A stretch of DNA of 64,000 nucleotides. It comes from Candidatus Thalassarchaeum betae. GTDB taxonomy: Archaea > Thermoplasmatota > Poseidoniia > Poseidoniales > Thalassarchaeaceae. The notes below the pieces were generated by a model that was not told where the DNA came from, did no database searches, and saw only the letters and a program-made list of their open reading frames with translations. The stretch spans positions 96,001 through 160,000 of the forward strand of contig PSPG01000004.1 in assembly GCA_003193925.1 (NCBI GenBank), written 5' to 3'. Made by a program: the position numbers and the translations under genes. Positions 1,274-49,997 of the stretch are shown here, in pieces (the first letter of the stretch is position 1; each line of letters opens with the position of its first letter).

Positions 1274-1311
1274 TGCATCAGATTCATTCGCTTGACTCCA
1301 GTGGAGCGCGC

Positions 1312-1785
1312 ATGACCCGGTACTGGCTGATGAAGAGCGAGCCACACGTCTATCCGTGGGAGCTGCTGGTTGAGGACGGTTCGACTCACTGGGACGGGGT
1401 GAGGAACTACCAAGCGAGGAACCTGATGAGGGATGAGATGAAGATTGGGGACCTCGCTCTGTTTTATCACTCCAACTGCAAGCCACCACATGTCGCTGGA
1501 GTCGTTAGGGTCTGCAGAGAGGGCTACCCCGACCACACGGCCCAAGACCCTGAATCGAACTACTTCGATCCCAAAGCCACCCCGGAGAACCCCCGTTGGA
1601 TTATGGTTGACATAGAACCAGTGACGGAACTCGATACCGTCGAGCTGTCCGAGTTGAGGGCGAATCCAAAACTCGAAGGGATGCCGTTGCTCAGAAGGGG
1701 CCAGAGACTCTCAGTCCAGCCTGTTCCCAAAGAGCATTTCGAGATCGTGTGCCGGATGGGTGGCCTTGTGGGAATGCCCGGTTAG
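1312..1785 (+). CDS. EVE domain protein (PUA-like, thymocyte nuclear protein 1-like)
   Basis: 'YWLMKSEP', 'WDGVRNYQARN', 'FYHS', 'RLSVQPV'; ATG 1312 chosen because it starts the domain and has TTCAT 24 nt upstream. Confidence 0.93.
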   Translation: MTRYWLMKSEPHVYPWELLVEDGSTHWDGVRNYQARNLMRDEMKIGDLALFYHSNCKPPHVAGVVRVCREGYPDHTAQDPESNYFDPKATPENPRWIMVDIEPVTELDTVELSELRANPKLEGMPLLRRGQRLSVQPVPKEHFEIVCRMGGLVGMPG

Positions 1786-2092
1786 GTGGGCGCGTCCTCG
1801 GTGGACGCTCGTCACCAGAGGTGCAAGTTCACCGATCTCCTCCGCCCCGCTATCCCAAGGCATCCAGCATCCCCGGTCGGGCTGCTCGCTTCCGCGCCTG
1901 ACCTGGTTCCCGGGCGTGAGACGGTCCTCGCTTCCCTCCGGAAGCGGCTTCCGCCAACCTGGATCTCTTGGGGGCGAGGCATCGACGTCAACCGGTGGAA
2001 CACCAATGGCTCGTCTGCGCCGCCCTCGGACTTCGGGTCTCCATTTTCGACGATTTGAGAACAACAGAGCACGTCAACTCTCCCCCTAGCCC
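1780..2092 (-). ncRNA. ffs: Archaeal SRP (7S) RNA
   Basis: Minus strand carries helix-8 signature CAGGUCAGGCGCGGAAGCGAGCAGC; 5' GGGCUAGG can pair with 3' CCUAACC; ~310 nt; no credible protein here. Confidence 0.9.
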
Positions 2093-2153
2093 GATTATGG
2101 CGGGAAATCGCCCCATATCAACGAATCCCTGACCCGAAATGTGGGATAAGGCG

Positions 2154-2531
2154 CTATTCCGAGTATTTCGAAGGGCAACCTGTCTGAATCTCATGTGCCT
2201 TAAGCAGCCAACCTTCACTGCTGTCCATCAGGTTTCCCTTGACAGCTATTGTATGGCCCTCTTCGAAACCGTCGGGGATGGCAACCCCAGAGAAGTCAAT
2301 GTGGAGCGTGTGCGACGTCCCTGCGAGGTCAAACGAGGATGAGGCGGAATCGAGCGAGCCGGCGACTACTTGACCACGCAGATGCACATTGCCCTCATGT
2401 GACTGAGGCGAGGCCATGACCTCGTCTACAGAATACTGGGTCTCGGGCTTGACGCTAAGGAACATCAGCGCAACAAGCCCAGCTAGGGCGAGGCCGACTA
2501 CGATCAGACGCGAAGCCCGGGTCCCCGCCAT
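2154..2531 (-). CDS. ccmE: Cytochrome c maturation protein CcmE (CxxxY type)
   Basis: N-terminal TM, OB-fold 'LRGQVVAGS', 'PDGFEEG', C-terminal 'CPSKY'. Confidence 0.9.
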   Translation of the reverse strand: MAGTRASRLIVVGLALAGLVALMFLSVKPETQYSVDEVMASPQSHEGNVHLRGQVVAGSLDSASSSFDLAGTSHTLHIDFSGVAIPDGFEEGHTIAVKGNLMDSSEGWLLKAHEIQTGCPSKYSE

Positions 2532-2576
2532 GCTCACACCTCGATTCGGGTGTTGATGAGGGTTTTCACTGGCGAG

Positions 2577-3680: not shown

Positions 3681-3733
3681 TGCTGCAGCCTGCCGAACGA
3701 TATTCTTCAAGCGTTGCGCAGCATCGCGGGTTC

Positions 3734-4144
3734 ATGAGCGCATCAAAGCAGGGTGCTGCTATCAGCGAACTCGCCCGCAGGACCCTCAGGTCCGGAGGGG
3801 TTACGGTTCGTACAAAGGATGCCGGACGGCTCAGTGTCGAGTCCCTCTCGGTTTTGATTTCTGATCTCGCGCCGTCTGTCATATCTGGGGCTGATGCCGT
3901 AGAGTCGGATGAAGAGGGCATCGAAATCGTGCTCGATGGCGAACCTGGAGGACTCATCGGTGGCCCCGAGCCGCGTACCCTGGAATGTGTTTGGATACCG
4001 GGGGTTCCAGATGACCTCTGGAGGAAGTACAGAAATTCCGTCTTGGATCTGGCTGCCGCTGGATACCCCGGCTGCATTGGTTGCGCCGGTCCGGCTGCTG
4101 AATTGCCATGGGATGAAGAGGGCTCGAGAGTGGTTCTGAGATAA
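3734..4144 (+). CDS. Hypothetical protein with C-terminal CxxC (GCIGC)
   Basis: Fills gap divergent from pyrD; 'GYPGCIGCAGP'; TTCAA 23 nt upstream of ATG. Confidence 0.65.
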   Translation: MSASKQGAAISELARRTLRSGGVTVRTKDAGRLSVESLSVLISDLAPSVISGADAVESDEEGIEIVLDGEPGGLIGGPEPRTLECVWIPGVPDDLWRKYRNSVLDLAAAGYPGCIGCAGPAAELPWDEEGSRVVLR

Positions 4145-4202
4145 CCCGCCTCGCGCGCCCCCCCGCTCGCGCACGCGTTGGAGAGTAATCGACCTGCTCA
4201 TG

Positions 4203-12934: not shown

Positions 12935-12992
12935 AGCGTATGGCCGGACCAATTCCGTAATGAATCTCATGCCTAAATGATGATTGTTCCAA

Positions 12993-17118: not shown

Positions 17119-17143
17119 GGACCCACGTCCATGAATCACTCTT

Positions 17144-18268
17144 TCAATCCAATGCCGACAAGATTGGCTGATGCATCAAATCGCGGATGGAAGAGGCACG
17201 CCATGCCTCGTCAGAAGATTCTGGAGCGTCCAGCCAGCCCAATCCGCCATATTCGCAGCCCATGGAATCAAGCGAGGACCTGAGAGATGGAGGGAGGGGA
17301 GTCGCGTCGCATCCTGCGATGATAACATCCGAGAGTCTCTGATGCAGGACCAAGTCGGCCAACGCATCCTGCTCCGTCGGCTCTAGACAGAGGGCCGAGC
17401 ACCTGGGCGCGGCCACGCCCTCGTGAACGGTGCCTGATGGAAATCGTGGGCAAGCACCCTCGCAACCGCAGTCGATGAAGGCGACCCTGTGCACAGAGCC
17501 ATCCGAGGCGATCATGTCCTCGACATCGAACCTCCTGCGACCGAGCGGGGCTTCTGGCAAGGTGCGGGAGATTGCGTCAGCCACCGCCATGGATATGGCG
17601 GCGACTAGCAGCCTCAGGCCCTCGTACTCGACTGGGAGAGTGAGCAGCAAGAGTCCTCCGAAGATCAGCAGTATACGCACCCTGAGCCTCGCCTCACCGT
17701 GCTCCACGAGACCCAGCAAGCGAGCCATAGACAGAGAGAGGGTGGCGAGCATGACGGTTACGAGTAGCCAGGAGAACCCCAGAGCCAGTCTGAACAGAGC
17801 GCTGGCGTCGTATCTGGCTCCAACCCCCTCCAGAGCGTCAGCAGCCTCAGTTGCCTCGATGAACAGGGGAAGCAGGTAACCCCATGTCGCTAGGATCACC
17901 GCCGGGACCATGACCATACTCAGGCAAAGCAGGACTGAGAGCCAAGTGCGCTCACGGGGAAGCAGCCCTGGACGAGCGAATCGCTGCAACTGGAAAGACA
18001 GTACCGGCATCACAGTTAGGAGGGCGAGTAAGATGGCCAAGGACCAGCGTATCTCCAACCACTCGAAGGGAGAGTACACAGACAGGTCGAGCGAGGCGGC
18101 GCCCAATGGAAGCGAGTTCAGCCACGCTCGCATCAGCGAGTCGGTGCCATACGCCCATGCGATTGCTGCGATGGCAATCAGTATGGCGGATTTGCGTATT
18201 GAGCGATGCAACTCAGACAGATGCTCGGACAAGGGCCTACGCCTGTCGGAGGATACTGCGAGTGTCAT
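17144..18268 (-). CDS. tatC: TatC-family protein fused to a C-terminal Cys-rich domain
   Basis: 'PLSEHLSEL', 'SPFE', 'FARPGLLPRER', about 6 TMs; extra C-terminal CxCxxxC...CxxxC...GC domain. Confidence 0.78.
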   Translation of the reverse strand: MTLAVSSDRRRPLSEHLSELHRSIRKSAILIAIAAIAWAYGTDSLMRAWLNSLPLGAASLDLSVYSPFEWLEIRWSLAILLALLTVMPVLSFQLQRFARPGLLPRERTWLSVLLCLSMVMVPAVILATWGYLLPLFIEATEAADALEGVGARYDASALFRLALGFSWLLVTVMLATLSLSMARLLGLVEHGEARLRVRILLIFGGLLLLTLPVEYEGLRLLVAAISMAVADAISRTLPEAPLGRRRFDVEDMIASDGSVHRVAFIDCGCEGACPRFPSGTVHEGVAAPRCSALCLEPTEQDALADLVLHQRLSDVIIAGCDATPLPPSLRSSLDSMGCEYGGLGWLDAPESSDEAWRASSIRDLMHQPILSALD

Positions 18269-23455: not shown

Positions 23456-23476
23456 GTCCGCTGGATTCATTCGGAC

Positions 23477-24359: not shown

Positions 24360-24396
24360 TGATGTCGTTCCACATGAAGGGCTCGCATGAAGGTTA

Positions 24397-24822: not shown

Positions 24823-24931
24823 CCAAACCCGGTCCACGGAGGGTCTTGAAAATCCCGGTTCAAGAGGTTGTCTCGGTAGAAAGGCATCATTCCTAGGCCG
24901 ATTTGATGTATCATCGGCCTCTGCGAGGTCC

Positions 24932-30396: not shown

Positions 30397-30494
30397 GGTT
30401 CGTGGCCTGCAATACCCTCAATCAAGGCATCGCCCCTCGAAGGTGCCAGGTGGCGAACCGTTAGACCGAAGACCTCAGCCGTCTTCGCAGCCCC

Positions 30495-32675: not shown

Positions 32676-32757
32676 AATTACCGGTAATCGGAACTCACCA
32701 TCAAGTCTTGCGTCAGCGCGGGAAACCATCAAGCGCGTGACCTCCGGCCCGGTAGCG

Positions 32758-33534: not shown

Positions 33535-33587
33535 TGGAAACGTTGCCGCATTCTTGATGGACTACCGACGCACAGGTCGGATAGCCT

Positions 33588-34382: not shown

Positions 34383-34391
34383 GGTGAGCAG

Positions 34392-36030: not shown

Positions 36031-36205
36031 GAGCGCACATCGGACGGAGTATCATCAACATTGCTCCGCTATTCCAATTCCTAGTTGATCTAACCCCTGA
36101 GCTTCCGGACTCACAAGCAACTGACCTAGGACTGGAGGAGACCGGGGACGCCCTCGGTCTAATATAGCCGATTAACCAGTGAGATACAAACAGAGGAAAT
36201 GCATC

Positions 36206-36814: not shown

Positions 36815-36858
36815 GTGGGCCCTCTATTACAACCTCATCAACAAGGGTACCCATCGAT

Positions 36859-37248: not shown

Positions 37249-37273
37249 GAATCATGCTACGCGAGGAGCCCCA

Positions 37274-37606
37274 TCAACGTAGTTCCCTGCCCGGTGGCGG
37301 CTGCTTGGGATCCCTGGCCTCATATGGCAGCACCATGACCAGTCCGCCTACTCCGGCTACCACGAACAAGCCCAGTGACCCTAGAAAGTTCGTCGTCTTG
37401 CGCGCTTTTTCCCCCTCCAACTCCCCGCACAACACTGGATCGGGAGACTCAACGGTATTCAGGACCAGTAGCCTGTACCCCATGTCACACTCACGCTCGT
37501 GCTCCCTGACCGCGTCGTCGTGCTCCTGCATCAGATCCATCGTCATAGGGAACAGAAACAAGGCGCACCCAATCAGGACGAAGCCGATCTTTGGATCCCT
37601 GTCCAA
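37274..37606 (-). CDS. Small two-TM membrane protein with a Cys pair in the loop
   Basis: Two hydrophobic segments; abuts the upstream MTAP stop; TTG start. Confidence 0.65.
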   Translation of the reverse strand: MDRDPKIGFVLIGCALFLFPMTMDLMQEHDDAVREHERECDMGYRLLVLNTVESPDPVLCGELEGEKARKTTNFLGSLGLFVVAGVGGLVMVLPYEARDPKQPPPGRELR

Positions 37607-38380
37607 CTAATCACCTAACTCGGCTAGAAGCGCTATCATGCAATTGCCGAGGCGCTCACTCATGGTGGCCGCTACAGCATCGACCGCTTCATGGTCGATG
37701 GCAGAATCAGGAGAGCCCGGGTTTCTTCCAGCGGCCCAGTTGGAGCAACACGAAAGTGCGACATGAGGAATTCCCCGTTCGGACATCAATCGTGATTCGG
37801 GGCCGAGAGTCATGCCGACCGCGTCCGCACCGAGCCGCTCGAGGGCGTCGATCTCCGAAGGTGACTCGAACTGTGGACCGATGCACTGCGCCACGACTAT
37901 CCCGCTCGGCACTATTCCTTGACTTACCTCAATGGTCCTCACACAAGCTTCGGAGGCGGCTGAGTCAAAGGGTGATGTCCTGTCGGCATGTGACGCATTA
38001 TCGTCATGGAACGTCCAAGGCCTCTCAGCGAGGTCAAGTACGTCGCCCGCGACTGCAATGGTCCCAGGCGGCATGTCCTCGCGCATGGTGCCAACCGAGT
38101 TGATGCTCACCACCAGGTCTGGCTGACAGCTCGCGGCTGCGTGAACGTTGGCGCGATGCTCGATCATGTGAGGCGGAGTCCTGCTGCCGTCGTCGGAGTG
38201 GTGGCGGTCGATCAGCAGAAGCTCCCCCTCTGGGAGCCCAACCAGAGTGGCAGGCACCTGGCCCCAGTTTGAGTCGATACGGAGTGCATCCGAAGTTGCC
38301 CCTTGCATCAAAGCGAGTTCGGATGTAAACGCACTCATTCCAGTACCACAGAGCACCGCGATGCGGGCCACAGTACTCAC
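37607..38380 (-). CDS. MTAP-family purine nucleoside phosphorylase
   Basis: 'GTG', 'RH...PPH.I.HRAN', 'GPQFESPSE', 'VGMT..PE', 'NWAAG'. Confidence 0.9.
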   Translation of the reverse strand: MSTVARIAVLCGTGMSAFTSELALMQGATSDALRIDSNWGQVPATLVGLPEGELLLIDRHHSDDGSRTPPHMIEHRANVHAAASCQPDLVVSINSVGTMREDMPPGTIAVAGDVLDLAERPWTFHDDNASHADRTSPFDSAASEACVRTIEVSQGIVPSGIVVAQCIGPQFESPSEIDALERLGADAVGMTLGPESRLMSERGIPHVALSCCSNWAAGRNPGSPDSAIDHEAVDAVAATMSERLGNCMIALLAELGD

Positions 38381-39279
38381 TCCTTCAAGCGCTCGATGAG
38401 TTCGGCCTTGTTGCCGGATACGGGCTTGCCGGCCTCCCTCAGGAGGTCCTTCAGTTGGACCACGGTCATCGATGGGTAGTCGGGAGCATCCTCGGCCGCC
38501 TCGGGCTCCTCGGCAGCCTCCCGCTCGGCTTCGCTCTCTGGCTCATCTTCCTCCTCGCTCGGCTCTTCCGCTTCCTCGTCGAACTCCGAGTCCTCGGACT
38601 CGAAAACAGTTGAGGCCTCGCTCTCGGCCCTCTCCTGCTCGCGAATCTCATCGAGCGTCGGGCCATCCTGGGTTACGACGCCGGCCTGAATCAGTTGGGT
38701 GCGTCGGATCATTACGCCCCTCACCGGCTGAATCTTGGAGACCGTTTCCTTGATCTTGCTCTCCATAGTGCCGTCCAGAGATGCCTTCTGCAGGTCTATC
38801 CAAGTGCTGGTAGCACCAATCTTGAGTATCACGTCACGCGCCAGTGCGCGCATCTCCTGCTTCTGGCTGGCCTTGATGCGGTTCCTCGATATCATTAGTG
38901 GCTTGATTCGCACATAGAAGCCATCGTCGGTGACGACATCGACCGTATCGTCGATCTTGCCCCTGTCGCGTCGGACCTGTCGGCGGATGTGGTCCTTCAG
39001 CATCTCGTGTCCAATGAACTCGGTCAGAGCGTCGTCGCCGACTACAGCAGTGATTCGGAACTGTACCTTCACGTGCATCTTCGAGAAATCGCCGTCGAGC
39101 TCGTACTGCAGGATCTCGTAGTGCCTGCCGATCAGCACCGACTCCTCCTCGGCCATCGTCTCGCCGATTACTTTGAAGAACCAGGGGTTGCGGGGTGCCC
39201 GGATTGTGTACCAGCGCTTGGACTTCCATTTGTCCCGCTGCTTACGTGCCGCCGCCCGTGCTGCTGCTCCCTTCGCCAT
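38377..39279 (-). CDS. rps3ae: 30S ribosomal protein S3Ae (eS1) with acidic linker and C-terminal SAP domain
   Basis: 'RDKWKSKRWYTIRAP', 'RRQVRR...KIDD'; tail 'MTVVQLKDLLREAGKPVSGNKAELIERL'. Confidence 0.95.
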   Translation of the reverse strand: MAKGAAARAAARKQRDKWKSKRWYTIRAPRNPWFFKVIGETMAEEESVLIGRHYEILQYELDGDFSKMHVKVQFRITAVVGDDALTEFIGHEMLKDHIRRQVRRDRGKIDDTVDVVTDDGFYVRIKPLMISRNRIKASQKQEMRALARDVILKIGATSTWIDLQKASLDGTMESKIKETVSKIQPVRGVMIRRTQLIQAGVVTQDGPTLDEIREQERAESEASTVFESEDSEFDEEAEEPSEEEDEPESEAEREAAEEPEAAEDAPDYPSMTVVQLKDLLREAGKPVSGNKAELIERLKE

Positions 39280-39419
39280 GGCAACGACCTCGTCTATCGG
39301 GGGCTACCCCGTTCGCGACCGTGCGACCTACCCCGAGTATTTGAATCAAAGCCCACGTGGGGAGACTTTGACGATGTCGCAATCGTCGGATTCAAAGATG
39401 AGTCTTCCATGCCGGTGGC

Positions 39420-39860
39420 ATGGGACTGCACAGCGCGACCTGGAGGATCCATGCCAGCGCTGTGGACGATCTTGGGCTGCTCGAGGGCAGCCTCAGGTGG
39501 CTGGCCGGGGACGGTTGCGAGCTGACCACGGAGAGGGGGAAGTCGTGGCATGGCTCACCGCAGACCATCATACAGGCCCGAGTCAGTCGGAAGAAGGCTG
39601 CTAGGGAGTCACTGGCGAGGCTGGGCGGGGCTGCGTTGGCGAGTCTTGTCGAAGATGGGCTCGCCAAGCGCATTGACGAAGACAAGGTGATGCACGTCAG
39701 AGTCGAATTGGCGAAGTTGGTTCAGGGGGAAGTCAGGCTCTCGCCCGATGGACACAGCGGGGCTACAGCCAAGGGCCAGTTCAAGATCGAGGCCTATCCG
39801 GGGAGCGATCCGGCGGATGTCATGAACGATACGATACGTTCCCTCCTAAGTGTCGAGTAG
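39420..39860 (+). CDS. Archaeal RNA-binding domain protein (DUF54/COG1325-like)
   Basis: 'SWHGSP', 'RIDEDKVMHVRV', 'KIEAYP'. Confidence 0.75.
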   Translation: MGLHSATWRIHASAVDDLGLLEGSLRWLAGDGCELTTERGKSWHGSPQTIIQARVSRKKAARESLARLGGAALASLVEDGLAKRIDEDKVMHVRVELAKLVQGEVRLSPDGHSGATAKGQFKIEAYPGSDPADVMNDTIRSLLSVE

Positions 39861-39927
39861 GGTCGTAGCGCTTCGTTTCTGAGCAAGTTTATTACTCGGA
39901 TTCACATCGCCAATGACGAGGAGCGGC

Positions 39928-40206
39928 ATGACTCATGTAGTCACCAGCGCATGCGTGCGATGCAAGTACCAAGATTGCGTCGCAGTCTGCCCTGTAGAGT
40001 GCTTCAGGGAGGCCGATGAGTATCTCGTCATCGACCCCGATGAGTGCATCGACTGTGCGGCCTGCATACCCGAATGTCCGGTTGGCGCGATCTACGCCGA
40101 TACCGATCTGCCCGACGAGGAGATGGAGTGGCTGGAGCGCAACGAAATCGAGGCTCCCGACCTGCCCCTCGCGGAGGGCGACTCGCCGGTCCTCGCCGAT
40201 TCGTGA
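39928..40206 (+). CDS. Ferredoxin (Azotobacter FdI-like dicluster type)
   Basis: '[18 protein letters not shown]...[21 protein letters not shown]'. Confidence 0.93.
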
Positions 40207-40270
40207 GCGGCCTGGGACGCGTCTCTCGGGCTGGACATAGGTTCATGAGGACATGCCGGGAGGATGGGAC

Positions 40271-41260
40271 ATGTCTCGGCTCGACCTCGAGAAGATGCGT
40301 CACGGGACGGAGCTGCTCAAACGCGGCCTCGCTAAGATGCAGGAAGGCGGCGTCATCATGGATGTCGTGACGCCCGAGCAGGCGCACATAGCCGAGGACG
40401 CCGCAGCGACTGCGGTGATGGCCCTCGAAAGGGTACCTGCGGACATTCGATCAGATGGAGGAGTGGCCAGGATGAGCCATCCCGACCTGATACGCGGCAT
40501 CATCGACACGACCAGCATCCCAGTGATGGCCAAGGCGCGGATAGGGCACGACGAGGAGGCCCGGGTGCTGCAGGCGCTTGGAGTCGACATGATCGACGAA
40601 AGTGAGGTCCTAACACCTGCTGACCCATTCTACCATATCGCAAAGAACGACTTTACCATCCCCTTCGTATGCGGATGCATCAGCCTCGGTGAGGCGTGCC
40701 GGCGCATCATGGAGGGCGCGGCGATGATTCGGACCAAGGGCGAAGCGGGGACAGGTAACGTGGTCAGCGCTGTGCAGCACGCGCGCGTGGTGGCTGAGGA
40801 GATCAGGCTTCTGCAGAGCGCGAATGATGCCGAGTTCGAGGTCATCGCCCGTACCATCTCGGATGGGTGGCGCCGCATCGAATCGGCTTCCGAGCACAAC
40901 TTGGTGGTTCAGAACACCCCGTTCGGAAGCATGGACGCCTGCCATGACTCGATAGTGGAAATCATGGGCGAGGTGCGGGAGATGAGCAGGCTTCCAGTCG
41001 TTACTTTCTCCGCTGGAGGAATCGCGACACCGGCCGATGCGGCTCTGCTGATGAGACACGGAATGGACGGGGTCTTCGTCGGCTCTGGGATCTTCAAGTC
41101 GGAGCATCCGGCGACAACCGCCTCCGCCATAGTGATGGCGACTCACCACTTCAACGACCCGGAGCGGGTGATGGAGGCCAGCTCCATGATGGCTGGAAAG
41201 GCGATGGATGGGCTCGAACTCGACAAGCTGGACGTCCGCATGGAAGAGCGCGGCTGGTAG
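40271..41260 (+). CDS. pdxS: Pyridoxal 5'-phosphate synthase lyase subunit
   Basis: 'GGVIMDV', '[11 protein letters not shown]', 'RTKGEAGTG', '[12 protein letters not shown]', 'ERGW'. Confidence 0.96.
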
Positions 41261-41261
41261 C

Positions 41262-42248
41262 CTAGCTCTTGTTGCCCCTAGTCGTCCCGAGTCGTCGTGA
41301 CTTCTTCTTCGCCTTGCTCAAGCGTCGAGAGGAGGACCTGTCCTCCTTCCTAGCCCCGCCGAGAGTAATCGAGCCCTGCTCAAGGAGCTGGTCGGCCAGC
41401 GAGTTTGCGAGCTCCTCGTCCTCGTCAGGAGTCTTCAAGGCGTCTCTGACCGACTGGTTGTGCTCCCTGATGATGCGTTCCTGCTCCTCGTGCTGGGCCT
41501 TGATCTCGTTGCGGATCTCATTGACCTGGTCGAGCAGGACCTTCATGTCCGAGTGAACCTTGTCCGCAGCCTCTCGGGAGGCCACGAAGGCGTTGTGGAG
41601 CCTGTCGCCCTCGGCTCGGAGGAAGTCCCTCTCCTCCAGCATGGGCTTGACCTCCTCCCATATCTCATCCGCCTCCACATTGGCTTCCAACATGGCCTTG
41701 TGCTGGGCGTCGGCCTCGGCCTTCAGGAGCTGGATTGAGCCTTCCATATCGCCGAGGTCGATTTCGATGACCTGAAACTCCTCTGCTATCGGCATGAGCT
41801 CCTCGCGCTTGGCTATGAGCGCCTTGAGACGCTTGAGCATGGCGTTCTCCTTGCTGAGCGACAGGGAACCGTCGGTCATTATACGGTTCTCGATGCGGTC
41901 GATCTCCCCTATCGTCTCAGACAGTTGGATGACGATGGGTTTCGTACCACCTTCGCCCCTCTTTCCGCGCCGCTGGGTAATCAGTTCGCGCATCTGAGAC
42001 TGGATCTCGTCTCGCTTCGCCTGATGAATCTTGGCCCTGTTCCTGACCTCCTTCTGATCCTCCATGCGCTCCTTGATTCGCTCCCTCAACTCACGCGCCT
42101 GCTCTTGGACTGAATTACGGGAATCGGCTGCGCGTCGGCCGTTCTCGTTGTGCCTGTTCCTCTGCTCCCGCATCCTCCTGAGTCGAGTCTCCATCGCATG
42201 GAGTCGGGTCCTGAGTTCATCCTCAGGCTTGTCTGTTTCTCCTAGCAC
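41262..42248 (-). CDS. Archaeal coiled-coil protein (COG1340-like), paralogue A
   Basis: Long coiled coil, hinge 'IDRIENRIMTDGSLSLSKEN', repeated A-D/E-x-x-H motifs. Confidence 0.8.
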   Translation of the reverse strand: MLGETDKPEDELRTRLHAMETRLRRMREQRNRHNENGRRAADSRNSVQEQARELRERIKERMEDQKEVRNRAKIHQAKRDEIQSQMRELITQRRGKRGEGGTKPIVIQLSETIGEIDRIENRIMTDGSLSLSKENAMLKRLKALIAKREELMPIAEEFQVIEIDLGDMEGSIQLLKAEADAQHKAMLEANVEADEIWEEVKPMLEERDFLRAEGDRLHNAFVASREAADKVHSDMKVLLDQVNEIRNEIKAQHEEQERIIREHNQSVRDALKTPDEDEELANSLADQLLEQGSITLGGARKEDRSSSRRLSKAKKKSRRLGTTRGNKS

Positions 42249-42290
42249 GGCACGACCACACTGGCCTCCCCTTTCAATAGACCTGAGTCG

Positions 42291-43865
42291 TTACAGACCC
42301 AGCAGTGTGAGCGTGAAGGGTACGAGGGGGGATAGTACCACTATCGCCGCCCCAACCATGAACAGGGCCCCCAATGTCATCCTGATTCGGGTGAACAGGT
42401 CAGACCTGACTTGGACTGTGAGGACCCTCCCGGAAATCAGGTTTCCAGCCTTGTCCTCAAGCCTAACGGTGACCGTCGCCTCGCCCATGGTCGAGGGCAG
42501 GAGGCTCTGCCAGACTATCCTCGTAGCAGACAGCGCGTTAGGCAGGGACGCGCTGAGTGGGATTGGCATGAGTGATTCCGATTCCGGAGAGTATGGGTCC
42601 ACCTTCAGGCGGTAGACGCATTCCTGGGGCCTGAAGTCGGGCGTCTGTACCCTCAGGACCAGATTCTTCGACTCATGGCCCTCGTTGAGCACGAAGGCGA
42701 ACAGGTTGGCCTGACCTACTACCAGATTCTCCATGCCCACATCGAACCACACACCGTCGTCAGTGCGCCCGGACTGCCTGCGCATGCGCATCCTGTCGTG
42801 GAGCCTGAAGAAGGGAGCGCACTTGGTGCGCGCGCGAGAGAGTAGCCTGTCCCAAGTCTCCTCCCCCAACTCGGGATGGCGGAACAGTCCCTCGACTGTC
42901 GCCGAGTCGACCATCGGCTCCAGCGCCGTTCTGAACTCGTCCTCGTCAATCAGAGAAGAGCGTCTTAGATACAGCATGTGCAGCAGCATCTCCTGGAGCT
43001 CGCGCCTGCTGCTACCCCGGTGTATCTTGGACTCGACAGAGCGAAGGTACTCGGATATCCTGACAGCGAGCAGGGGGTCTATGTGAGCGCGAATCACATC
43101 AGTGAAGGGACGGCTCAGCAGAGCTGGGTGGATTGGGGGGGAGAAGGCCTCCAGCATGCCCCAGGGCTCAGCGGTGTTGAAGCGCGAGCGCTCGGAGACC
43201 ATGTGGACTCCGTGGCCGGACAGCAGTGCACCGGTGGAGAACGCGAAGAGGAAGGGCGCGTCTGCGACCTCCTCGGAGAACCACAGGCTGCTTGCAAGCA
43301 GGACGGCCGCGAGAACCATCAGGGTAATCGTGATCACGAGTTGTCGCGTGGCACCGTCCATGGTAGCCCTCATCTCGGTGTAACCGTGAGCGCTGTTGAA
43401 AGTCAGGCCCGCAGTGGTCAGCGCCTCTGCCTCGAGCCGAAAAATCGTCCTAGTGACCACCATCAGCCTCAGCAGGATGAGCAGCAAGGTGATGTCAGCG
43501 ACAAGCATGAGCAGCGACATGACGTAGATTCCCGTCGACATCGGCAGGCCGCCAGCGGCACCCTCGACATGATCGGCCCACCACTGCGGGTTCGAGTTGC
43601 TGAAAGACTGTGCCAGTCCGTAAAGCACGATTACCAGCAACGGCAAGTACAACACCAGTCTAGCACCGTCGCTTATCAGGAGCCTGTCAACCCTGATCAG
43701 CGTGAGCTCCTGGCCCCTGAGCCTCTCAATCCTCTCGCCTGTCTCCCCCGACTGAGTCGCTTGGGAGATTGGAGAAGGTGGCATATCGGGAGCGGGTGGG
43801 ACTGATTCATCCAAAGCATCGGCGAGGCTATCCAAATCGTTAGCATCGCCGTCGTCATCCACCAT
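42291..43865 (-). CDS. Hypothetical multi-pass membrane protein with large soluble domain
   Basis: About 4 N-terminal TMs, soluble region with a beta-rich part, C-terminal TM. Confidence 0.8.
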   Translation of the reverse strand: MVDDDGDANDLDSLADALDESVPPAPDMPPSPISQATQSGETGERIERLRGQELTLIRVDRLLISDGARLVLYLPLLVIVLYGLAQSFSNSNPQWWADHVEGAAGGLPMSTGIYVMSLLMLVADITLLLILLRLMVVTRTIFRLEAEALTTAGLTFNSAHGYTEMRATMDGATRQLVITITLMVLAAVLLASSLWFSEEVADAPFLFAFSTGALLSGHGVHMVSERSRFNTAEPWGMLEAFSPPIHPALLSRPFTDVIRAHIDPLLAVRISEYLRSVESKIHRGSSRRELQEMLLHMLYLRRSSLIDEDEFRTALEPMVDSATVEGLFRHPELGEETWDRLLSRARTKCAPFFRLHDRMRMRRQSGRTDDGVWFDVGMENLVVGQANLFAFVLNEGHESKNLVLRVQTPDFRPQECVYRLKVDPYSPESESLMPIPLSASLPNALSATRIVWQSLLPSTMGEATVTVRLEDKAGNLISGRVLTVQVRSDLFTRIRMTLGALFMVGAAIVVLSPLVPFTLTLLGL

Positions 43866-43867
43866 GG

Positions 43868-44521
43868 TCACACCTCCTCGGTCCTGGCCAGTATGCGCAG
43901 TGACAGTGGTTTGGACATCTGCAATCGATAGCCGCCACAGAATAACCCGTCCTCAGTAGATTGCACCTTGGTGCCGATGCCGAGACCGGCTACCTCCAGT
44001 GTGCGCGCGTCGGTGGCGTCCATGACAATCAACTCGACAGTTGCCGAGGAGCCCGACGGCAATGCCGAGATAGGCAGGAGGAATCCGCTCCTGATAGGCT
44101 CCACCCTCCTCTCTATCAGCGGGATCCTCTCACCACTGGGGGTACTCTCGGGATAGCCGAGCATCCTATCGAGTGCTGCCTCGAGCTCATCGTCTATGCC
44201 GTGCTCCAACCTGCATGCGGCCTCAGAGACGTCACCGGTGAACCCTATGACCTCGGTGAGTAGTATCTCTATCAGCCCCTCTCGGCGTTTTATCCTAGCA
44301 GCTCGCTGGAATCCCTCCGGCGTCAGGCGGCATCCCTTGTATGGGATGTGGGTGACTAGGTCGCGGCCCGCCAGACGCTGGATCATCTCTGAGGTGGATG
44401 CGGGGCTCACATCCATCATCTCAGCGAGCTGGGTCGTCTTGACAATGGCGTCAGGCTTGTCGACATGTGCCTCGAAGAGGCGCTTGAGGTACATCTCCTC
44501 GAACTCGCTCAACTCAGCCAT
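43868..44521 (-). CDS. DtxR/MntR family metal-dependent transcriptional regulator
   Basis: 'EMYLK', 'VSPAS.SEMIQRL', 'PYKG..LT..G', 'ACRLEH', FeoA-like C-terminus. Confidence 0.92.
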   Translation of the reverse strand: MAELSEFEEMYLKRLFEAHVDKPDAIVKTTQLAEMMDVSPASTSEMIQRLAGRDLVTHIPYKGCRLTPEGFQRAARIKRREGLIEILLTEVIGFTGDVSEAACRLEHGIDDELEAALDRMLGYPESTPSGERIPLIERRVEPIRSGFLLPISALPSGSSATVELIVMDATDARTLEVAGLGIGTKVQSTEDGLFCGGYRLQMSKPLSLRILARTEEV

Positions 44522-44532
44522 AATTCACCACG

Positions 44533-46083
44533 TCACCCCACCTCGGCCATGAATTCGGTCCTGCATGCCGGGCATCTGGAGCGGACGGGTCTGCGCTCCA
44601 GCGGAACCCGCAGCTTCTGGTCGCACTCCGGGCAAGATAGAATCTCCTCATTGGATGTTGCTACTGGCCACCAAGGAGCAGGCTCGGGCTCCGCTGTGCC
44701 CCCCTCAGAAGGCCCTTGACCCTGCGGACGGGGCTCAGTAGGGGACTGGACTGCCGGTTCCTCCTGAGCGGGCCGGGCGGAGAATTGCGACATGCAGGCA
44801 GGGCAGCGGACCGTCCCGGTGTGCTCGGAGGGAATGTTCAGGCGCTGCTCGCAGTTCGGGCACTGTATCTCTCGCTTCGCGGGCGCCTTCTCGAACCTGC
44901 GAGTGATTCTTGAGTCCCTGAGCACCTTTCCTCTACCTTCCTCGGTGCCAGGTGTCCTCTCCGATACGGTCCGCCAAGCGATGATGCCGACCAGCACTAC
45001 CGCGAAGCCCGACAGGGCTCCGTAGAAAGCCGCCATGAGATCGAATGGTAGTTCAGTCCCCCCACCGGAATCGGTGGACTCGACCGACAGGAACTCTGAG
45101 ACTACGGTGCCTTCCATGAACCAAGTGACCTCGAGCTCCACGATCTGCGAATCCGGCCACGGGCTGATATCCATAGTGCCCGACGACGTCCCCCCCGAGG
45201 AGACGGAAGACACGATCCTCTCAGCCAGCAGCATGCCGTCAGAGGTTCGGACAACCCTGAGTTCCCCCGATAGTGTAACGGCATCCCCGGAGTTGTTCAG
45301 CCAGTATGGCAGGCTCACTGAGTCACCGGGACTTGGTTTGTTAGGTGAGTGCGGGCCGAGTTCGACGGAGGGGGATATCGAAGGTGCATCCAAGTCGACC
45401 TGCCAAGTCAGGTTGACGGCCGAGTTGCTGGTCGTCCATCCTCGTGGCTCAAGGGTCACAGAGAGGTAATCTGCTTCCGGTTCCCCCAAGGCAAGTGACA
45501 ATGTCCTGAGGCCAGGCTCGAGAGTGACTGAGAACCCCTGCACCTCATGCTTGACTCCTTGGTAACCCAAGGCGATGGAGATGTTGACGTCTCTGGACTC
45601 CCCTTCGGACAGCACCACTGAAATCTGCGAATCCAGGCCATCGGCCAAGGTCCAATCGACCTCGTCGAAACTCAGGTCCAGAGACTGAGCCTCGTAGACA
45701 TGGATCTCCAGAGAGCCTTGAAGCAGCGAAGAGACTCCTCCATCGTCGCTCCCGACCTCCCAACTCATGTTCAGAACTCCGGCCGAGCTGGGAGTCATTG
45801 AGGCTGAGACCTCACGGCTCGAGCCGGGGTTGATAGCCACGTCGTCGCCGATAGAGAGATTGGTTCCCTCAGAATCGGTAAGTACCAATCTTACCGAACC
45901 GGTCTCCGAACCTTGGTTGTGAACCAGGATAGACGCTGTGATTTCGTCGCCGACATGCACTGGCTCCCCGACTACCGCCACATCAGCCGCGCCTGCGGAA
46001 GTGAACATCTTCTCATTGTCCTCGGCGAAGGCTGCCGGGGACAGAAGGGCCGATGCAAGCATGATAACCGCGATTTTTCGCAT
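44533..46083 (-). CDS. Secreted Ig/CARDB-like protein with TM and two cytoplasmic Zn ribbons
   Basis: Signal peptide, CARDB-like 'VHNQGS', TM, 'CPNC..CPAC' and 'CPEC..CPAC'. Confidence 0.8.
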   Translation of the reverse strand: MRKIAVIMLASALLSPAAFAEDNEKMFTSAGAADVAVVGEPVHVGDEITASILVHNQGSETGSVRLVLTDSEGTNLSIGDDVAINPGSSREVSASMTPSSAGVLNMSWEVGSDDGGVSSLLQGSLEIHVYEAQSLDLSFDEVDWTLADGLDSQISVVLSEGESRDVNISIALGYQGVKHEVQGFSVTLEPGLRTLSLALGEPEADYLSVTLEPRGWTTSNSAVNLTWQVDLDAPSISPSVELGPHSPNKPSPGDSVSLPYWLNNSGDAVTLSGELRVVRTSDGMLLAERIVSSVSSGGTSSGTMDISPWPDSQIVELEVTWFMEGTVVSEFLSVESTDSGGGTELPFDLMAAFYGALSGFAVVLVGIIAWRTVSERTPGTEEGRGKVLRDSRITRRFEKAPAKREIQCPNCEQRLNIPSEHTGTVRCPACMSQFSARPAQEEPAVQSPTEPRPQGQGPSEGGTAEPEPAPWWPVATSNEEILSCPECDQKLRVPLERRPVRSRCPACRTEFMAEVG

Positions 46084-46203
46084 TACTGCCACAGCAGCGC
46101 CTAGGCCCATTGGCAATGCCTCGGAATAGGTGCCCGTATGAATCAAACGCCTGGCAAGGTCACATAGTGACCTTTAATGCGGGCTCTCTCGTGCCCCGGA
46201 GCC

Positions 46204-47034
46204 ATGGATACCGAGGCACTGCTGGCAGTGACGCCAGAGGAGTTGGCGCAAGCACTGCTGGTGAGGAGGCAGGTTCTGAAGGAGCAGTTGCCTAACGTCA
46301 TCCGCAACCTCGAGGCTGAGGAGGACTCAATGCAGCCGCGAGTACAGAGGGCAGTCAATTCCCACCGTACGGCCAATGACAAGGTAGCCCAGCTCAAGGA
46401 GCGGCGCAACGCGGCTCAGAAGAGGGCCGGAGCGACCCTGCGCGATGTCAAGCAGGCCCGTGACAGCCTAGCCGATAGCGATGGGATGGTCAACCTCGAT
46501 CCCAACTGGAAGAAGGAGAAGCTGTTCGAGGAACTGGAGGAGATCGAGGATGTGATTCAGACCTCGGCCCTCGACCATCGTGCGGAGAGGAAGATGCTCG
46601 ACCGTCGCAAGAGGTTGCTCGAAGCCAATGAGAGATGGCTGAAGTCCAGGCGCGATTCCAATCCCGAGATGGCGAACTACATTGACACCCGAGGAGAGAT
46701 GAGTTCCCTCTACAGAGAGGCGGACAAGGCCCACCGAGAGATGCTGGTGATAGTTGAGAAGGCTCAGCCGCTGCATGAGAAGAAGCTGGTCATGGGGGCT
46801 GAACTGCGTGAGCTCCGCAGGCAGTTGGATCGAGCCAAGGAGCTCTTTGCCAAGTCTGACTCGGCGATTGCTCACTGGGAGAGGAGGATCTCTGACGGAT
46901 TCGATGGACTCGGTGGGGGGTTTCCCGATCTGTTGGCTGCGAACCGCAGGGTCTCCGAAGGCGGTCGCTCCTCGTTCGCTCGGAAGTCCAAGGCTAGATC
47001 CAAAGGCGCTTCAAATAGGAGTGAGGAGGAATGA
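46204..47034 (+). CDS. Archaeal coiled-coil protein (COG1340-like), paralogue B
   Basis: 'LEEIEDVIQTSALDHRAERKML', 'EADKAH', 'AQPLHE'. Confidence 0.8.
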   Translation: MDTEALLAVTPEELAQALLVRRQVLKEQLPNVIRNLEAEEDSMQPRVQRAVNSHRTANDKVAQLKERRNAAQKRAGATLRDVKQARDSLADSDGMVNLDPNWKKEKLFEELEEIEDVIQTSALDHRAERKMLDRRKRLLEANERWLKSRRDSNPEMANYIDTRGEMSSLYREADKAHREMLVIVEKAQPLHEKKLVMGAELRELRRQLDRAKELFAKSDSAIAHWERRISDGFDGLGGGFPDLLAANRRVSEGGRSSFARKSKARSKGASNRSEEE

Positions 47035-48005
47035 GCGAAGGCAAGGACTCGGGCCTATTCGAGGATCTGGAGGCGATGGATCACAAGGACATCGAAGAAC
47101 TCAGGGGAGATCTGGAGAGAGACCTGAGGTCCGTCGATCAGCAGCACAGGGAACTGAGGGACGAGAGGCGAAACCAAGTCGACATCGTCCGCTCGATGAG
47201 ATCTGCTGTAGGGGAGATCGAGTCCGCCGACGGAGAGAGGAAGGGTCTTCTCAAGAAATTCCACGCTACCAGGAAGTCCGCCGACGAAGCTCGCAAGCAA
47301 AGGGACTCCGTCAACAACTGCATCCCCCCTCCCGCTGATGTCCTGTCCGAGTGGCTGGCAGAGACCCATCGTCGACTGATTACCATCGACAACGACCTTA
47401 CCTGCGTGCCGACCCTTGCCCGAGAACTCGATACCTTCAGTCGCTTCTTCGAGCTTCAGGCCGCCATCGTCAGGAAGAGGGAGTCCGAGGTCGCGCACGG
47501 GAAATACGTGAAGCATGTCCAGGACATGAGGGCGATAACCTCGAGGCTAGACGCCACTCGCAAGACCAAGAAGGACAGTGCGGAGAACGCGTCGGCGAAG
47601 TCGGACATAGAGCCCGGAAAAATCTCTCGCTCGGAAGTTCGTAAGACTAGTCGGGGAATCGACAAGATAGACAAGAAACTCGATGTCCTCAGTTCCGAGC
47701 GCAAGTCCCTGCGCAAGAGCCTGGGACGAATCAAAGCCTATCAGAAAGTCACTATGCGAGGCGGTCGGCATATTCGCCTGTCCGATGTCAAGGACCGGGC
47801 CCAGAGCGGAGGCTCGCTCGATGCGAGTGAGCTTGAGGTCCTGCTGAATTCGGGAGCACTGTCCGAATTGGCCGGTTCGGAGCCCGCCAAGGAGTCCAAG
47901 CCGAAGACCCGACAAGGTGGCAAGAAGAAGCGCATGAGGCTGGGTGTGACCAGAGGCGGCTCGAGGAAGGGGACTATGGCTGCTCGCAGGGAGAATGACG
48001 GCTGA
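47031..48005 (+). CDS. Archaeal coiled-coil protein (COG1340-like), paralogue C
   Basis: Coiled coil, 'SGGSLDASEL', basic tail 'KKKRMRLGVTRG'; ATGA overlap with B. Confidence 0.75.
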   Translation: MSEGKDSGLFEDLEAMDHKDIEELRGDLERDLRSVDQQHRELRDERRNQVDIVRSMRSAVGEIESADGERKGLLKKFHATRKSADEARKQRDSVNNCIPPPADVLSEWLAETHRRLITIDNDLTCVPTLARELDTFSRFFELQAAIVRKRESEVAHGKYVKHVQDMRAITSRLDATRKTKKDSAENASAKSDIEPGKISRSEVRKTSRGIDKIDKKLDVLSSERKSLRKSLGRIKAYQKVTMRGGRHIRLSDVKDRAQSGGSLDASELEVLLNSGALSELAGSEPAKESKPKTRQGGKKKRMRLGVTRGGSRKGTMAARRENDG

Positions 48006-48073
48006 GCAGATTCTTTGGCTTCCGCCACTCCTAAATGGGGGTCCAAGTTCCGAAAATGCGCAGAGGCTTTTAG

Positions 48074-48964
48074 ATGGCAGTGGAATTCAGCGAAGTTCGT
48101 GGTGTCCTCCAGCCCCTGTGCGAATCAATTGATGGGAAGTCATCCGTCCAACGCGACAATCGTGATGAGTGGAATGGTAAAGTCAGGGAGTACCTCGACG
48201 AGAGAAACGAGATCAACCGGCAAGTCAAGGGGCTCATCAACGAAGTCCAAACCCAAAAGGCCATTCGCGACGAGCTCAACCTCAGGGTCAGGGGGCTCAA
48301 AGAGGTCAGGGCCGAGCGTTCCGACCACCTGAAGGACATCAGAACGAAACTTCGAGCGAAACTGACTGCGCAGGAGGAGGAGCAGGGGGCCCAGGAGCGC
48401 AGGGGGGACAAGCGTCCCTCCGCAGGTAAGATCAGGGCTGATATGGAAAGGCTCGAGAAGAGGTACAATACAGGGCAGTTCCTCGGCAAGAAGGAACGAG
48501 ATTACCACAAGAAGGCGAAGCAGCTCTCTGAGGCTCTGAAGGAGGCTTCCAAGAGAAAGGGCGCCGGAACGATGCGCGAGCTCAAGGACTCGGTCAGGGA
48601 TGCTGAGCGCCTCCAGGAGGAGGCACACAAGTCGGTCGAGAGGGCAGTGAAGAGTGCACAAGAGGCCCACGACCTGATGGTAGAGTTGTCCGAGGAGGTA
48701 GACCGCCTAAGGGAGAAAGCTAACTCCGCTCACTCGAGTCTGACTCGCTCCAAGCGCGAGGCAGATACCATGCACAGCCGGTACATCGTCTCACTGCGAT
48801 GCATACACTCTATTCGGGACATGATGAAGGCGATGGATTCGCGAGAGAAGAGGGAAGAGGAGTCACCCGACACCGAGAGGCTGGAGGTCGCCGACTTGAT
48901 GTCCAAGCTGATGGCCGGAGACACGCTGTCAACCGATGAGTTGATGGCCCTCAGGCGATACTGA
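48074..48964 (+). CDS. Archaeal coiled-coil protein (COG1340-like), paralogue D
   Basis: 'RDEWN..V...ERNEIN', 'AQEAHDLM', 'EADTMH', C-terminal 'KLMAGDTLSTDEL'. Confidence 0.85.
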   Translation: MAVEFSEVRGVLQPLCESIDGKSSVQRDNRDEWNGKVREYLDERNEINRQVKGLINEVQTQKAIRDELNLRVRGLKEVRAERSDHLKDIRTKLRAKLTAQEEEQGAQERRGDKRPSAGKIRADMERLEKRYNTGQFLGKKERDYHKKAKQLSEALKEASKRKGAGTMRELKDSVRDAERLQEEAHKSVERAVKSAQEAHDLMVELSEEVDRLREKANSAHSSLTRSKREADTMHSRYIVSLRCIHSIRDMMKAMDSREKREEESPDTERLEVADLMSKLMAGDTLSTDELMALRRY

Positions 48965-48967
48965 CCG

Positions 48968-49915
48968 TCACTCGTACTCGTACCGCCTTCCATTGCGGCC
49001 GTGCAGAATCTGGGTTGGTGCACCCTCTACGTCTATGATCCAGCCCGGTATTGTCACAGGGGACTCACTGAGCTCTGCCGTTTCCGGGTCGAACCTCCAC
49101 CACTCCAGCATCACGCTGCTCACCGGACCTTCATCGGAATCCGGCTCGCCCTGCTTACGCGAATCCAGAAGTCTGAGGAGTTCTGGGGGGAAGTCCCACA
49201 TATCCGTCCAACTCCCCTCCGAGGGGCCCACCGCCCTGAGTCTGGGAGGATAGCTGAGTTCCTCGTCCGAATCGTAGATCGCAAGGCTGGAAGACCAAGG
49301 GTCCTCCAGCACCTGCCACGCTCCCCACTCCCTCTCGTCATCGGGGCCTACGAGCGAGCCTGAGACGAGCCATAGTTTCGCAGACAGCAGGACAGGAGTG
49401 GTATTGACTCCCTCCCATCCGCGTTGTACCAGCCAGGAGTCAAGATCCACGAGTGGCCTCAGAGTCCTGCGCTGACCGAGAGATTCTCTGGCAGGGGGGG
49501 TATGGGCACCGTGTTCAGCGTCCAACCCAGACTGCGAGTATGGAGAGTGCGCAACGAGGTCGCCGGAGAGCACGGCCTCACCGATCCATCGCCCCATTCG
49601 CTCAGGCCCCCATATGACTACATCCACTGCAGAGTCGATGGAATCCAGTATCCCGTCCGGGAAGGGGCGCTCGCTGAGTATCCAATGCCTGCCTCCTGGA
49701 GCGTCGACGCTCCACCTCTCGATCTCCGTCGGCGAGATAGGAAGGAGATCTGCGGGGACATGCCACACATGAACCGAGGAGCCCCGCCCCTCGCCTAGTT
49801 CCGGCACCCTCTCAGCAACACCCATACACCTGAACCCATGGACCTTCGGCACGTTGTCCGCTGAGTGAAGTTGTACGGCCCGCAATGCGAGTAGGTCACG
49901 TACTGCCTCATCCAC
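48968..49915 (-). CDS. Hypothetical protein (possible degenerate restriction-endonuclease-like N-terminus)
   Basis: 315-aa ORF with own TTCAA element; fold guess is weak. Confidence 0.7.
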   Translation of the reverse strand: MDEAVRDLLALRAVQLHSADNVPKVHGFRCMGVAERVPELGEGRGSSVHVWHVPADLLPISPTEIERWSVDAPGGRHWILSERPFPDGILDSIDSAVDVVIWGPERMGRWIGEAVLSGDLVAHSPYSQSGLDAEHGAHTPPARESLGQRRTLRPLVDLDSWLVQRGWEGVNTTPVLLSAKLWLVSGSLVGPDDEREWGAWQVLEDPWSSSLAIYDSDEELSYPPRLRAVGPSEGSWTDMWDFPPELLRLLDSRKQGEPDSDEGPVSSVMLEWWRFDPETAELSESPVTIPGWIIDVEGAPTQILHGRNGRRYEYE

Positions 49916-49997
49916 AGCGCGAGCGACAGAGGAGAGGCCTTGAAACGAACGCCTCGGAAGCGATTCGGAAGCGGATTAGCCCGGAGGCCGCGGCACG

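Follow-up and report, generated by a model that had tools for sequence, protein, structure and literature searches.

An archaeal core promoter consists of a BRE (TFB recognition element), a TATA box rich in A/T that lies about 25-30 bp upstream of where transcription starts, and an initiator at the start itself. Here, we examine a pentamer, TT[C/G]A[A/T] (TTSAW, where S is C or G and W is A or T), in a stretch of 64,000 nucleotides (nt) of Candidatus Thalassarchaeum betae (contig PSPG01000004.1, positions 96,001 to 160,000; hereafter the window) and in further genomes of the order Poseidoniales (Marine Group II), and we consider it very probable that this pentamer, by the mechanism proposed below, is the core-promoter element at the TATA position in the order. 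The box is like its canonical counterpart in its position, in a purine-rich BRE-like flank and in the pyrimidine/purine step at -1/+1, and it serves mRNA, tRNA and signal recognition particle (SRP) RNA genes in a genome that holds TBP and TFB genes. It is unlike it in that the third position is C or G in ~93% of Poseidoniales sites and that most genes show five informative positions, whereas relatives outside the order keep A/T at the third position.

In the differential RNA sequencing study of Haloferax volcanii (PMC4983044), the BRE is given as CGAAA and the TATA box as TTWT, most first genes are leaderless and GUG makes up 6% of the leaderless starts. The genome of the window shares with this haloarchaeon a high G+C content, a comparable BRE (C G n A R, where R is a purine) and leaderless GUG starts; by contrast, the third base of TTWT is W and that of TTSAW is S, and the GUG share is ~22% here (38.5 of 175.7 net sites). 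For the archaea of group D, the available text on GeneMarkS-2 (10.1101/193490) describes a promoter box ~26 nt before leaderless first genes (22-24 nt in Halobacterium salinarum) and a ribosome binding site for the rest. The same dual start model is seen here, with ~175 box-type and ~420 Shine-Dalgarno-type starts in the host genome, but that text yielded neither a C/G-containing box nor Marine Group II. Within the titles and abstracts of the open-access literature, subscription journals lying outside the search, Marine Group II promoters and TBP were not found described, nor was a non-canonical archaeal TATA box of such kind, and an order-wide core-promoter change with TTSAW was not met in these searches. 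In abstracts from this literature, Marine Group II is described as the planktonic archaea that are most abundant at the ocean surface, with no cultured representatives, so that its gene starts and transcription units come solely from prediction. With its constant distance, the box offers a direct rule for start calling and aids the reading of metatranscriptomes.

Genome-Wide Enrichment and Start-Codon Specificity

The window (C19:96001-160000) belongs to a genome, G000, of 1.48 Mb in 23 contigs with ~61% G+C. Crude, self-trained gene calling gave 1218 genes, which cover 91% of this genome. As candidate starts (n = 3841) we took every in-frame ATG or GTG from the upstream stop codon to 90 nt past the start given by the coding score; decoys were 15795 internal ATG/GTG codons, and backgrounds were same-phase. 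Spacing denotes the nucleotides between the end of the box and the start codon, with the box at -29..-25.

A first-pass annotation, made from the letters of the window, had placed TTSAW exactly 24 nt upstream of leaderless starts and had suggested a genome-wide positional motif analysis with controls. Counts at the candidate starts described above showed enrichment at -29..-25: TTSAW occurred 100 times at 24 nt against a background of 19.4 and 75 times at 25 nt against 18.9, with 34 occurrences each at 23 nt and at 26 nt, while the decoys were flat (14 against 14.4 at 24 nt, 55 against 75.9 at 25 nt). The exact spacing thus describes the ten sites listed in the window, whereas the genome-wide spacing is 24-25 nt. 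When all 1024 pentamers were ranked by net excess at 24 and 25 nt together, TTCAT, TTCAA, TTGAA and TTGAT took places 1-4. Every k-mer was also scanned blindly at every offset, and two signals alone emerged: the box at 23-25 nt and, at 3-8 nt, the Shine-Dalgarno word GGAGGTGA. Likewise, offset-free expectation maximization (150 random seeds, 404 upstream regions) converged on gGTTGAAg, with TTGAA at -29..-25; a position-constrained version was discarded, having drifted to coding periodicity with decoys scoring above candidates.

The net excess was 137 for ATG, 38.5 for GTG and 4.8 for TTG, and was zero or negative for CTG, ATT, ATC, ATA, ACG, AAG, GAG and GCG. Unlike the box peak, the Shine-Dalgarno signal serves ATG, GTG and TTG equally. 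The proposal of widespread leaderless initiation, also from GTG, fits these values and the GTG codons conserved among orthologues (see below); leaderlessness itself we infer from the spacing.

Boxes in the Window

The window comprises roughly 60 genes, two tRNAs and an archaeal SRP RNA, and its genes include those for RNA polymerase subunits, FttA, a proteasome subunit, S3Ae and L7Ae. All ten listed sites with exactly 24 intervening nt were present in the sequence, as were four looser cases, namely 3734 (plus, 23 nt), 3680 (minus, 25 nt), 24822 (minus, 23 nt) and 36030 (minus, 23 nt). The boxes with their starts are as follows:

1283..1287, plus: TTCAT, 24 nt before ATG 1312 of an EVE-domain protein (1312-1785)
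2117..2121, minus: TTGAT(ATG), 24 nt before G 2092 of the conserved GGGCTAGG of the SRP RNA (Rfam match 1784-2096)
3706..3710, both strands: palindromic TTCAA/TTGAA, on the minus strand 25 nt before ATG 3680 of dihydroorotate dehydrogenase
3706..3710, plus: other side of the same box, 23 nt before ATG 3734 of a 136-residue open reading frame (ORF) of unproven reality
12960..12964, minus: TTCAT, 25 nt before GTG 12934
17143..17147, minus: TTGAA, 24 nt before ATG 17118 of a peptidase M6-like protein of 654 residues; newly added to the list
23466..23470, plus: TTCAT, 24 nt before GTG 23495 of a NUDIX protein; newly added to the list
24387..24391, minus: TTCAT, 27 nt before the mature 5' end (24359) of tRNA-Pro(TGG)
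24846..24850, minus: TTCAA, 23 nt before GTG 24822
24903..24907, plus: TTGAT, 24 nt before ATG 24932 of a 92-residue ORF without family
30421..30425, minus: TTGAT, 24 nt before GTG 30396 of a class I aminoacyl-tRNA synthetase of W/Y type
32700..32704, minus: TTGAT, 24 nt before GTG 32675
33554..33558, plus: TTGAT, 29 nt before ATG 33588 of thymidylate synthase
36054..36058, minus: TTGAT, 23 nt before ATG 36030
37273..37277, minus: TTGAT, 24 nt before ATG 37248 of a MazG-like protein
39341..39349, minus: TTGATTCAAATA, ~62 nt before ATG 39279 of ribosomal protein S3Ae, with GAGGT 8 nt before the start
39391..39395, plus: TTCAA, 24 nt before ATG 39420
40242..40246, plus: TTCAT, 24 nt before ATG 40271 of PdxS/SNZ
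42273..42277, minus: TTGAA, 24 nt before GTG 42248
49940..49944, minus: TTCAA, 24 nt before GTG 49915

A test made without the gene caller gave the same picture. Among the 404 TTSAW sites on both strands of the window, 12 were followed at 24 nt by an ATG or GTG opening at least 90 codons, whereas spacings other than 22-27 nt gave 2.9 on average (sd 2.1). These 12 are the nine protein sites first listed, the two new ones (17118 minus and 23495 plus) and 29460 on the minus strand, which lies inside an aminoacyl-tRNA synthetase gene and is probably a chance match. Such a match, together with the annotation's own caveat that the motif had guided some of its start choices, would be what is expected if chance or circular start calling produced the box. 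This explanation has practically no probability left, as it is refuted by the decoy, pentamer-ranking, codon and caller-free controls as well as by the orthologues and RNA genes described below. Applied to the window, the box rule replaces the start 40253 by 40271 and the start 32834 by 32675, and it also settles GTG starts.

Conservation in Orthologous Promoters

Orthologues were compared in same-genus relatives that are 67-82% identical over the region. The box at 30396 was kept at 24 nt in five of five orthologues, as was its GTG, while the spacer between them varied, and the box at 37248 was kept at 24 nt in all seven. At 42248 the box stood at 24 nt in all eight orthologues, switching between TTGAA and TTCAA at position 3, and GTG was the start in each of them. 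At 32675 the box was kept at 24 nt in three of three, before GTG in one and ATG in two; exchange between GTG and ATG was seen at 30495 as well. The box at 39420 was less uniform, with TTCAA in 6 of 10 orthologues and ATTAAG at the same place in the other four. For 40271, TTCAT was found in 3 and TTCTT in 9 of 12 orthologues; here ATG 40271 is conserved and the upstream in-frame ATG 40253 is not, which supports 40271 as the start. In the case of thymidylate synthase (33588), TTGAT lay 29 nt upstream in six of six orthologues, and the mRNA, judging from these sequences, probably carries a 5-nt leader without Shine-Dalgarno motif.

RNA Genes and Leadered Genes

The 5' ends of RNA genes do not depend on the choice of start codons and therefore give evidence for the box without start calling. 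Upstream of the SRP RNA gene, TTSAW was located 24-25 nt before the conserved GGG(C/A)TAGG in all 22 relatives, which belong to three families, and its position 3 was never A/T in any of them. Mostly this box was extended, to TTGATATG, TTCAAATA, TTGAAATA or TTCATATA, and one SRP locus (L011) showed two overlapping boxes, one of them at 24 nt. As for tRNAs, 18 of the 42 with 80 nt of upstream sequence had a box 23-32 nt before the mature 5' end; this bin held 19 occurrences compared to 0-3 in other 10-nt bins, and most of the remaining tRNAs showed, by eye, sTTAW words at that place. Moreover, the S3Ae gene, with TTGATTCAAATA ~62 nt upstream and GAGGT before its start, indicates that leadered genes are driven by the TTSAW box too; TTSAWATA was kept there in all ten orthologues.

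Box Anatomy and Transcription-Unit Context

Box composition was determined from leave-one-out net counts pooled over four genomes of the order. Position 1 was T in 71%, C in 17% and A in 11%; position 2 was T in 100%; position 3 was C in 53%, G in 40%, T in 6% and A in 1%, that is C/G in 93%; position 4 was A in 93%; and position 5 was A in 54% and T in 41%. The sixth base was G in about half of the sites. With such a third position and so frequent a G at the sixth, the box does not conform to an A/T-rich TTTAWA-like consensus. A purine-rich flank of the BRE type, C G n A R, ends two bases upstream of the box, and its signal is weak: the 7th, 6th, 4th and 3rd bases upstream were C in 46%, G in 52%, A in 42% and R in 71%, compared to 32, 38, 23 and 55% in controls. 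Downstream, C occupied the 24th base after the box in 67% of 175 sites (controls: 37%), so that the start codon would coincide with a pyrimidine/purine initiator. Some 37 genes had boxes of canonical type (TTAWN, TTTAW) at this distance, and no common theme among them was obvious by eye.

Box-bearing genes are heads of transcription units. Those with an upstream neighbour (n = 176) were divergent in 49%, separated by at least 30 nt in 40% and tightly packed in 11%, whereas 50% of the genes of the Shine-Dalgarno class (n = 329) were tightly packed. Thus, 89% of the box genes are divergent from, or at least 30 nt away from, the upstream gene, and Shine-Dalgarno-like 4-mers precede their starts in 18%, compared to 16% for random positions. 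Together with the fixed spacing and the purine-initial start codons, this is the arrangement expected of leaderless genes. Transcripts that start a few bases upstream or downstream of the codon, and hence carry very short leaders, would be in line with the 75 sites at 25 nt and the 34 each at 23 and 26 nt, with the conserved 29-nt case and with tRNA boxes lying 26-27 nt before the mature end. They appear improbable, however, as the peak is bound to in-frame ATG/GTG, with none at TTG or at purine-initial non-start codons, C stands at -1 and there is no excess of Shine-Dalgarno motifs.

A TTSAA box is a perfect palindrome and may serve both strands. Palindromic TTSAA boxes with starts 23-26 nt away on both sides were found seven times genome-wide, compared to 0, 1 and 0 times for control spacings. 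They lie at C1:61651, C4:15767, C4:34871, C5:48736, C9:63181, C18:11049 and C21:82120 of G000, and the window has such a site at 3706-3710; start-to-start gaps are ~53 nt. We regard these boxes, including 3706-3710, as candidate shared bidirectional core promoters. On both strands of 3734-4174 no Pfam match was obtained, so the plus-strand ORF at 3734 stays unproven. The palindrome, the seven two-sided boxes and the mere five informative base pairs could also suggest that the box is bound not by TBP but by another abundant, lineage-specific DNA-binding factor which positions the polymerase. This seems very unlikely to us: the position equals that of the A/T box of relatives, the BRE-like flank is present, TTAAG takes the place of the box in orthologues at 39420, and strong promoters extend to TTSAWATA, the archaeal 8-mer except for position 3. 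A bidirectional palindromic box would, besides, also be expected of the pseudo-symmetric TBP.

Lineage Distribution and TpA Avoidance

The same pipeline was applied to samples of other genomes, from the three families of the order (f1, f2 and f3), from a same-class outgroup outside it and from other Thermoplasmatota. Occurrences before candidate starts, with backgrounds in brackets, were:

G020 (f3, 51% G+C): TTSAW at 24 nt 48 (7.5); TTWAW 5 (1.4)
G072 (another genus of f1, 52% G+C): TTSAW 16 (3.5); TTWAW 0
G021 (f2, 47% G+C): TTSAW 11 (2.5); TTWAW without clear peak
G031, G036, G042 and G049 (same class, outside the order, 61% G+C): TTSAW 0 (2.2); TTTTA, TTATA and TTTTT at 22-24 nt instead
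G114 (other Thermoplasmatota, 55% G+C): TTSAW 2 (1.9); TTWAW 5, 8, 11 and 6 at 22-25 nt (2.0)
G110 (other Thermoplasmatota, 38% G+C): TTSAW 1 (3.5); TTWAW 18, 14, 16 and 21 at 22-25 nt (~8.5)

The box is carried by the sampled genomes of all three families (47-62% G+C), and C/G at position 3 characterizes the order Poseidoniales. Motif-blind average profiles showed T at -29/-28, no A/T preference at -27 and A at -26/-25 in the order, compared to T followed by runs of W (-29..-23), with W at -27, in the outgroups. These matching profiles and the exchange of TTCAAG for TTAAG at 39420 place the box where sister lineages carry their A/T-rich box; with the BRE-like flank, the reading as a TATA-position element that had been made from the window alone is thereby supported, and its C/G at the third position is the dominant state, lineage-wide in three families. 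The trait is not a by-product of G+C content, because the same-class outgroups at 61% G+C had no TTSAW at 24 nt and used TTTTA or TTATA instead.

The words that the box would replace are rare in these genomes. The observed/expected ratio of TTWAW was 0.20-0.41 in four genomes of the order compared to 0.78-1.10 in three outgroup sets, and in the same four genomes that of TTATA/TATAA was 0.07-0.19 and that of TTAAA/TTTAA 0.08-0.29. For the dinucleotide TpA, ratios were 0.38-0.59 over the whole sequence and 0.51-0.70 in intergenic DNA, against 0.74-0.84 and 0.87-0.96 in the outgroups. Furthermore, intergenic DNA in the order is not A/T-richer than coding DNA, a trait that the three outgroup sets do not have. 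TTCAW and TTGAW are TA-free, one-transition derivatives of TTTAW and TTAAW, and for this reason we consider it likelier that S replaced W through order-wide avoidance of TpA acting on a tolerant, otherwise canonical TBP, and less likely that a changed base preference of TBP was the cause.

TBP and TFB

G000 has one TBP gene and two TFB genes. The first-pass annotation had taken the box to imply an altered read-out by TBP/TFB and had asked for inspection of the DNA-contact residues of TBP, which did not support this: the Asn, Val, Phe, Phe, Leu, Val and Thr that face DNA in yeast and archaeal structures are kept in both repeats and are the same as in the TBP of Methanocaldococcus jannaschii, to which repeat 2 is almost identical. 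Moreover, the TBP gene (L024:1465-2208 on C18, outside the window) does not use the box of its genome. In 77 of 80 Thalassarchaeaceae loci (L024:1435-1482; L070-L149 around position 560-600), a canonical TTTATAAG-type box precedes the conserved ATG of MLSDEE, at 24 nt in 58 loci, 25 nt in 17 and 23 nt in two, the other three loci being cut by contig ends. Judged by this spacing, the second ATG (L024:1480) is likely the TBP start in G000 and the first (L024:1465) probably not. A canonical box in this very gene, the opposite of the genome's usual one, may indicate autoregulation.

The TBP does carry an insertion, after strand S1' of repeat 2 (..ATYALHYPEDY...GEPxAxxPRKLNLNNL..), which was present in every Poseidoniales TBP examined (f1, f2, f3; L150-L159, L240). 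Its length is ~20 residues in f3 and one genus of f1 and ~50-60 in f2 and most of f1; it was found neither in 20 sampled genomes (f4/f5) of the same-class outgroup nor in 41 further Thermoplasmatota genomes from 20 families. An AlphaFold2 model (pLDDT, the model's per-residue confidence, 87) predicts a folded insertion, giving residues ~111-172 three strands and a short helix at pLDDT 76-90. Solved TBPs align over 172-180 of 242 residues (Z 18-20) and have no counterpart of it. It is net acidic, with ~15 D/E against 9 K/R, and direct reading of DNA by the insertion is therefore doubted.

These data bear on the possibility that the machinery itself changed, i.e., that the Poseidoniales TBP, through the insertion or subtle changes, or together with TFB, came to favour G:C at position 3 and the genome followed. 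The S/W degeneracy is the outcome expected of minor-groove reading, G and C exchange freely at a position 3 that is S in 93% net with W almost absent, the shift is independent of G+C content, and the predicted-folded insertion is order-specific and unmatched in solved TBPs. Nevertheless, the possibility remains doubtful in our view: the DNA-facing residues are canonical, the insertion is acidic, the TBP gene's own promoter is canonical TATA, the per-occurrence enrichment at 24 nt in G000 is ~3.5-fold for TTWAW and thus near the ~5-fold for TTSAW, and the co-occurrence of box and insertion amounts to a single evolutionary event. A variant in which a re-tuned TBP bearing the insertion prefers G:C at position 3, and TATA words have been purged from the genome (TTWAW being five-fold under-represented) and are kept only for special promoters such as that of the TBP gene, yielding a two-tier code with possible TBP autoregulation, is unlikely.

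For a box with one G:C pair on an ordinary TBP, crystal structures exist with variants of the adenovirus major late promoter (AdMLP), whose numbering is presumed to map onto the box positions used here. By their entry titles, Arabidopsis thaliana TBP2 sits on AdMLP boxes with one G:C pair such as C(-25) and G(-26) (1qn3-1qna); unlike the Poseidoniales box, no variant listed in these titles has C/G at the third position, and they are crystallographic variants rather than a natural consensus.

Further features were observed in TBPs of single genomes and of the outgroup. The locus of one relative (L169, G034:C35:5300-7800) shows a 588-residue TBP frame with ~350 further residues before S1', beside the order-wide insertion. 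The main TBP of the outgroup (L160-L165) reads MVCVG where other TBPs read MV(I/L)TG, and so has lost the conserved DNA-facing Thr of repeat 2, and a second, divergent TBP paralogue occurs in same-class outgroup genomes.

Proposed Mechanism

On the position, composition, lineage distribution, start-codon specificity and conservation of the box observed above, we propose that TFB and TBP would assemble on the weak BRE (C G n A R) and the box, whose first T lies at -29. RNA polymerase would then begin at a purine that follows a C, 24-25 nt beyond the box. For ~175 genes of G000, the starting purine would be the A or G of the start codon, giving a leaderless mRNA that would be translated from its 5'-terminal AUG or GUG. 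The extended box, TTSAWATA, would drive the SRP RNA, tRNAs and leadered Shine-Dalgarno genes such as that of S3Ae. C/G at the third position would be the selected state in the order, with A/T still working and rare. If so, Poseidoniales are a natural example of an entire order that has exchanged the A/T demanded almost universally at one TATA position. The exchange is accompanied by a TBP insertion and genome-wide avoidance of TpA, and it bears on what sets the sequence preference of TBP.

Several points weigh against this proposal. The gene caller that supplied the starts is crude; independent of it are the caller-free test, the comparison of orthologues and the RNA genes. Half of the peak is made up of 25-nt spacings, so that a 1-nt leader may occur in some transcripts, and one conserved case (33588) stands at 29 nt. 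The box is a putative TBP/TFB site. RNA runs with this DNA are assembled contigs of relatives, in which 5' ends are unreadable: one run contains 6% of the words of 36001-46000 and, over 30001-50000, 20 short contigs, one of which is at least 99% alike; one RNA contig ends ~2 nt short of 37248 and was not counted as evidence. The TTTATAAG box of the TBP gene and the ~37 canonical-type boxes imply that C/G at position 3 is not obligatory. Finally, a common cause may underlie the box change and the TpA depletion, or the two may have nothing to do with each other, and as box, TBP insertion and TpA depletion fall on a single branch of the tree they count as one observation.

Other Features of the Genome

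Three short contigs of G000, C2, C15 and C22 (L242-L244), have 45-46% G+C compared to ~61% elsewhere. A viral origin of C22 (46% G+C) was considered and rejected: there was a single 4% match, and its genes are cellular archaeal ones, coding for a PAN-like ATPase and histidine-utilisation enzymes. All three contigs are probable mis-binned pieces of another archaeon and not of a virus.

In the window, a stretch of ~35-45 nt at 36079-36117, within the intergenic region between 36030 and 36179, is a short dispersed repeat. It recurs with 82-92% identity at five other places in G000, two on C20 and one each on C18, C13 and C6, and is also present in the relative G009.

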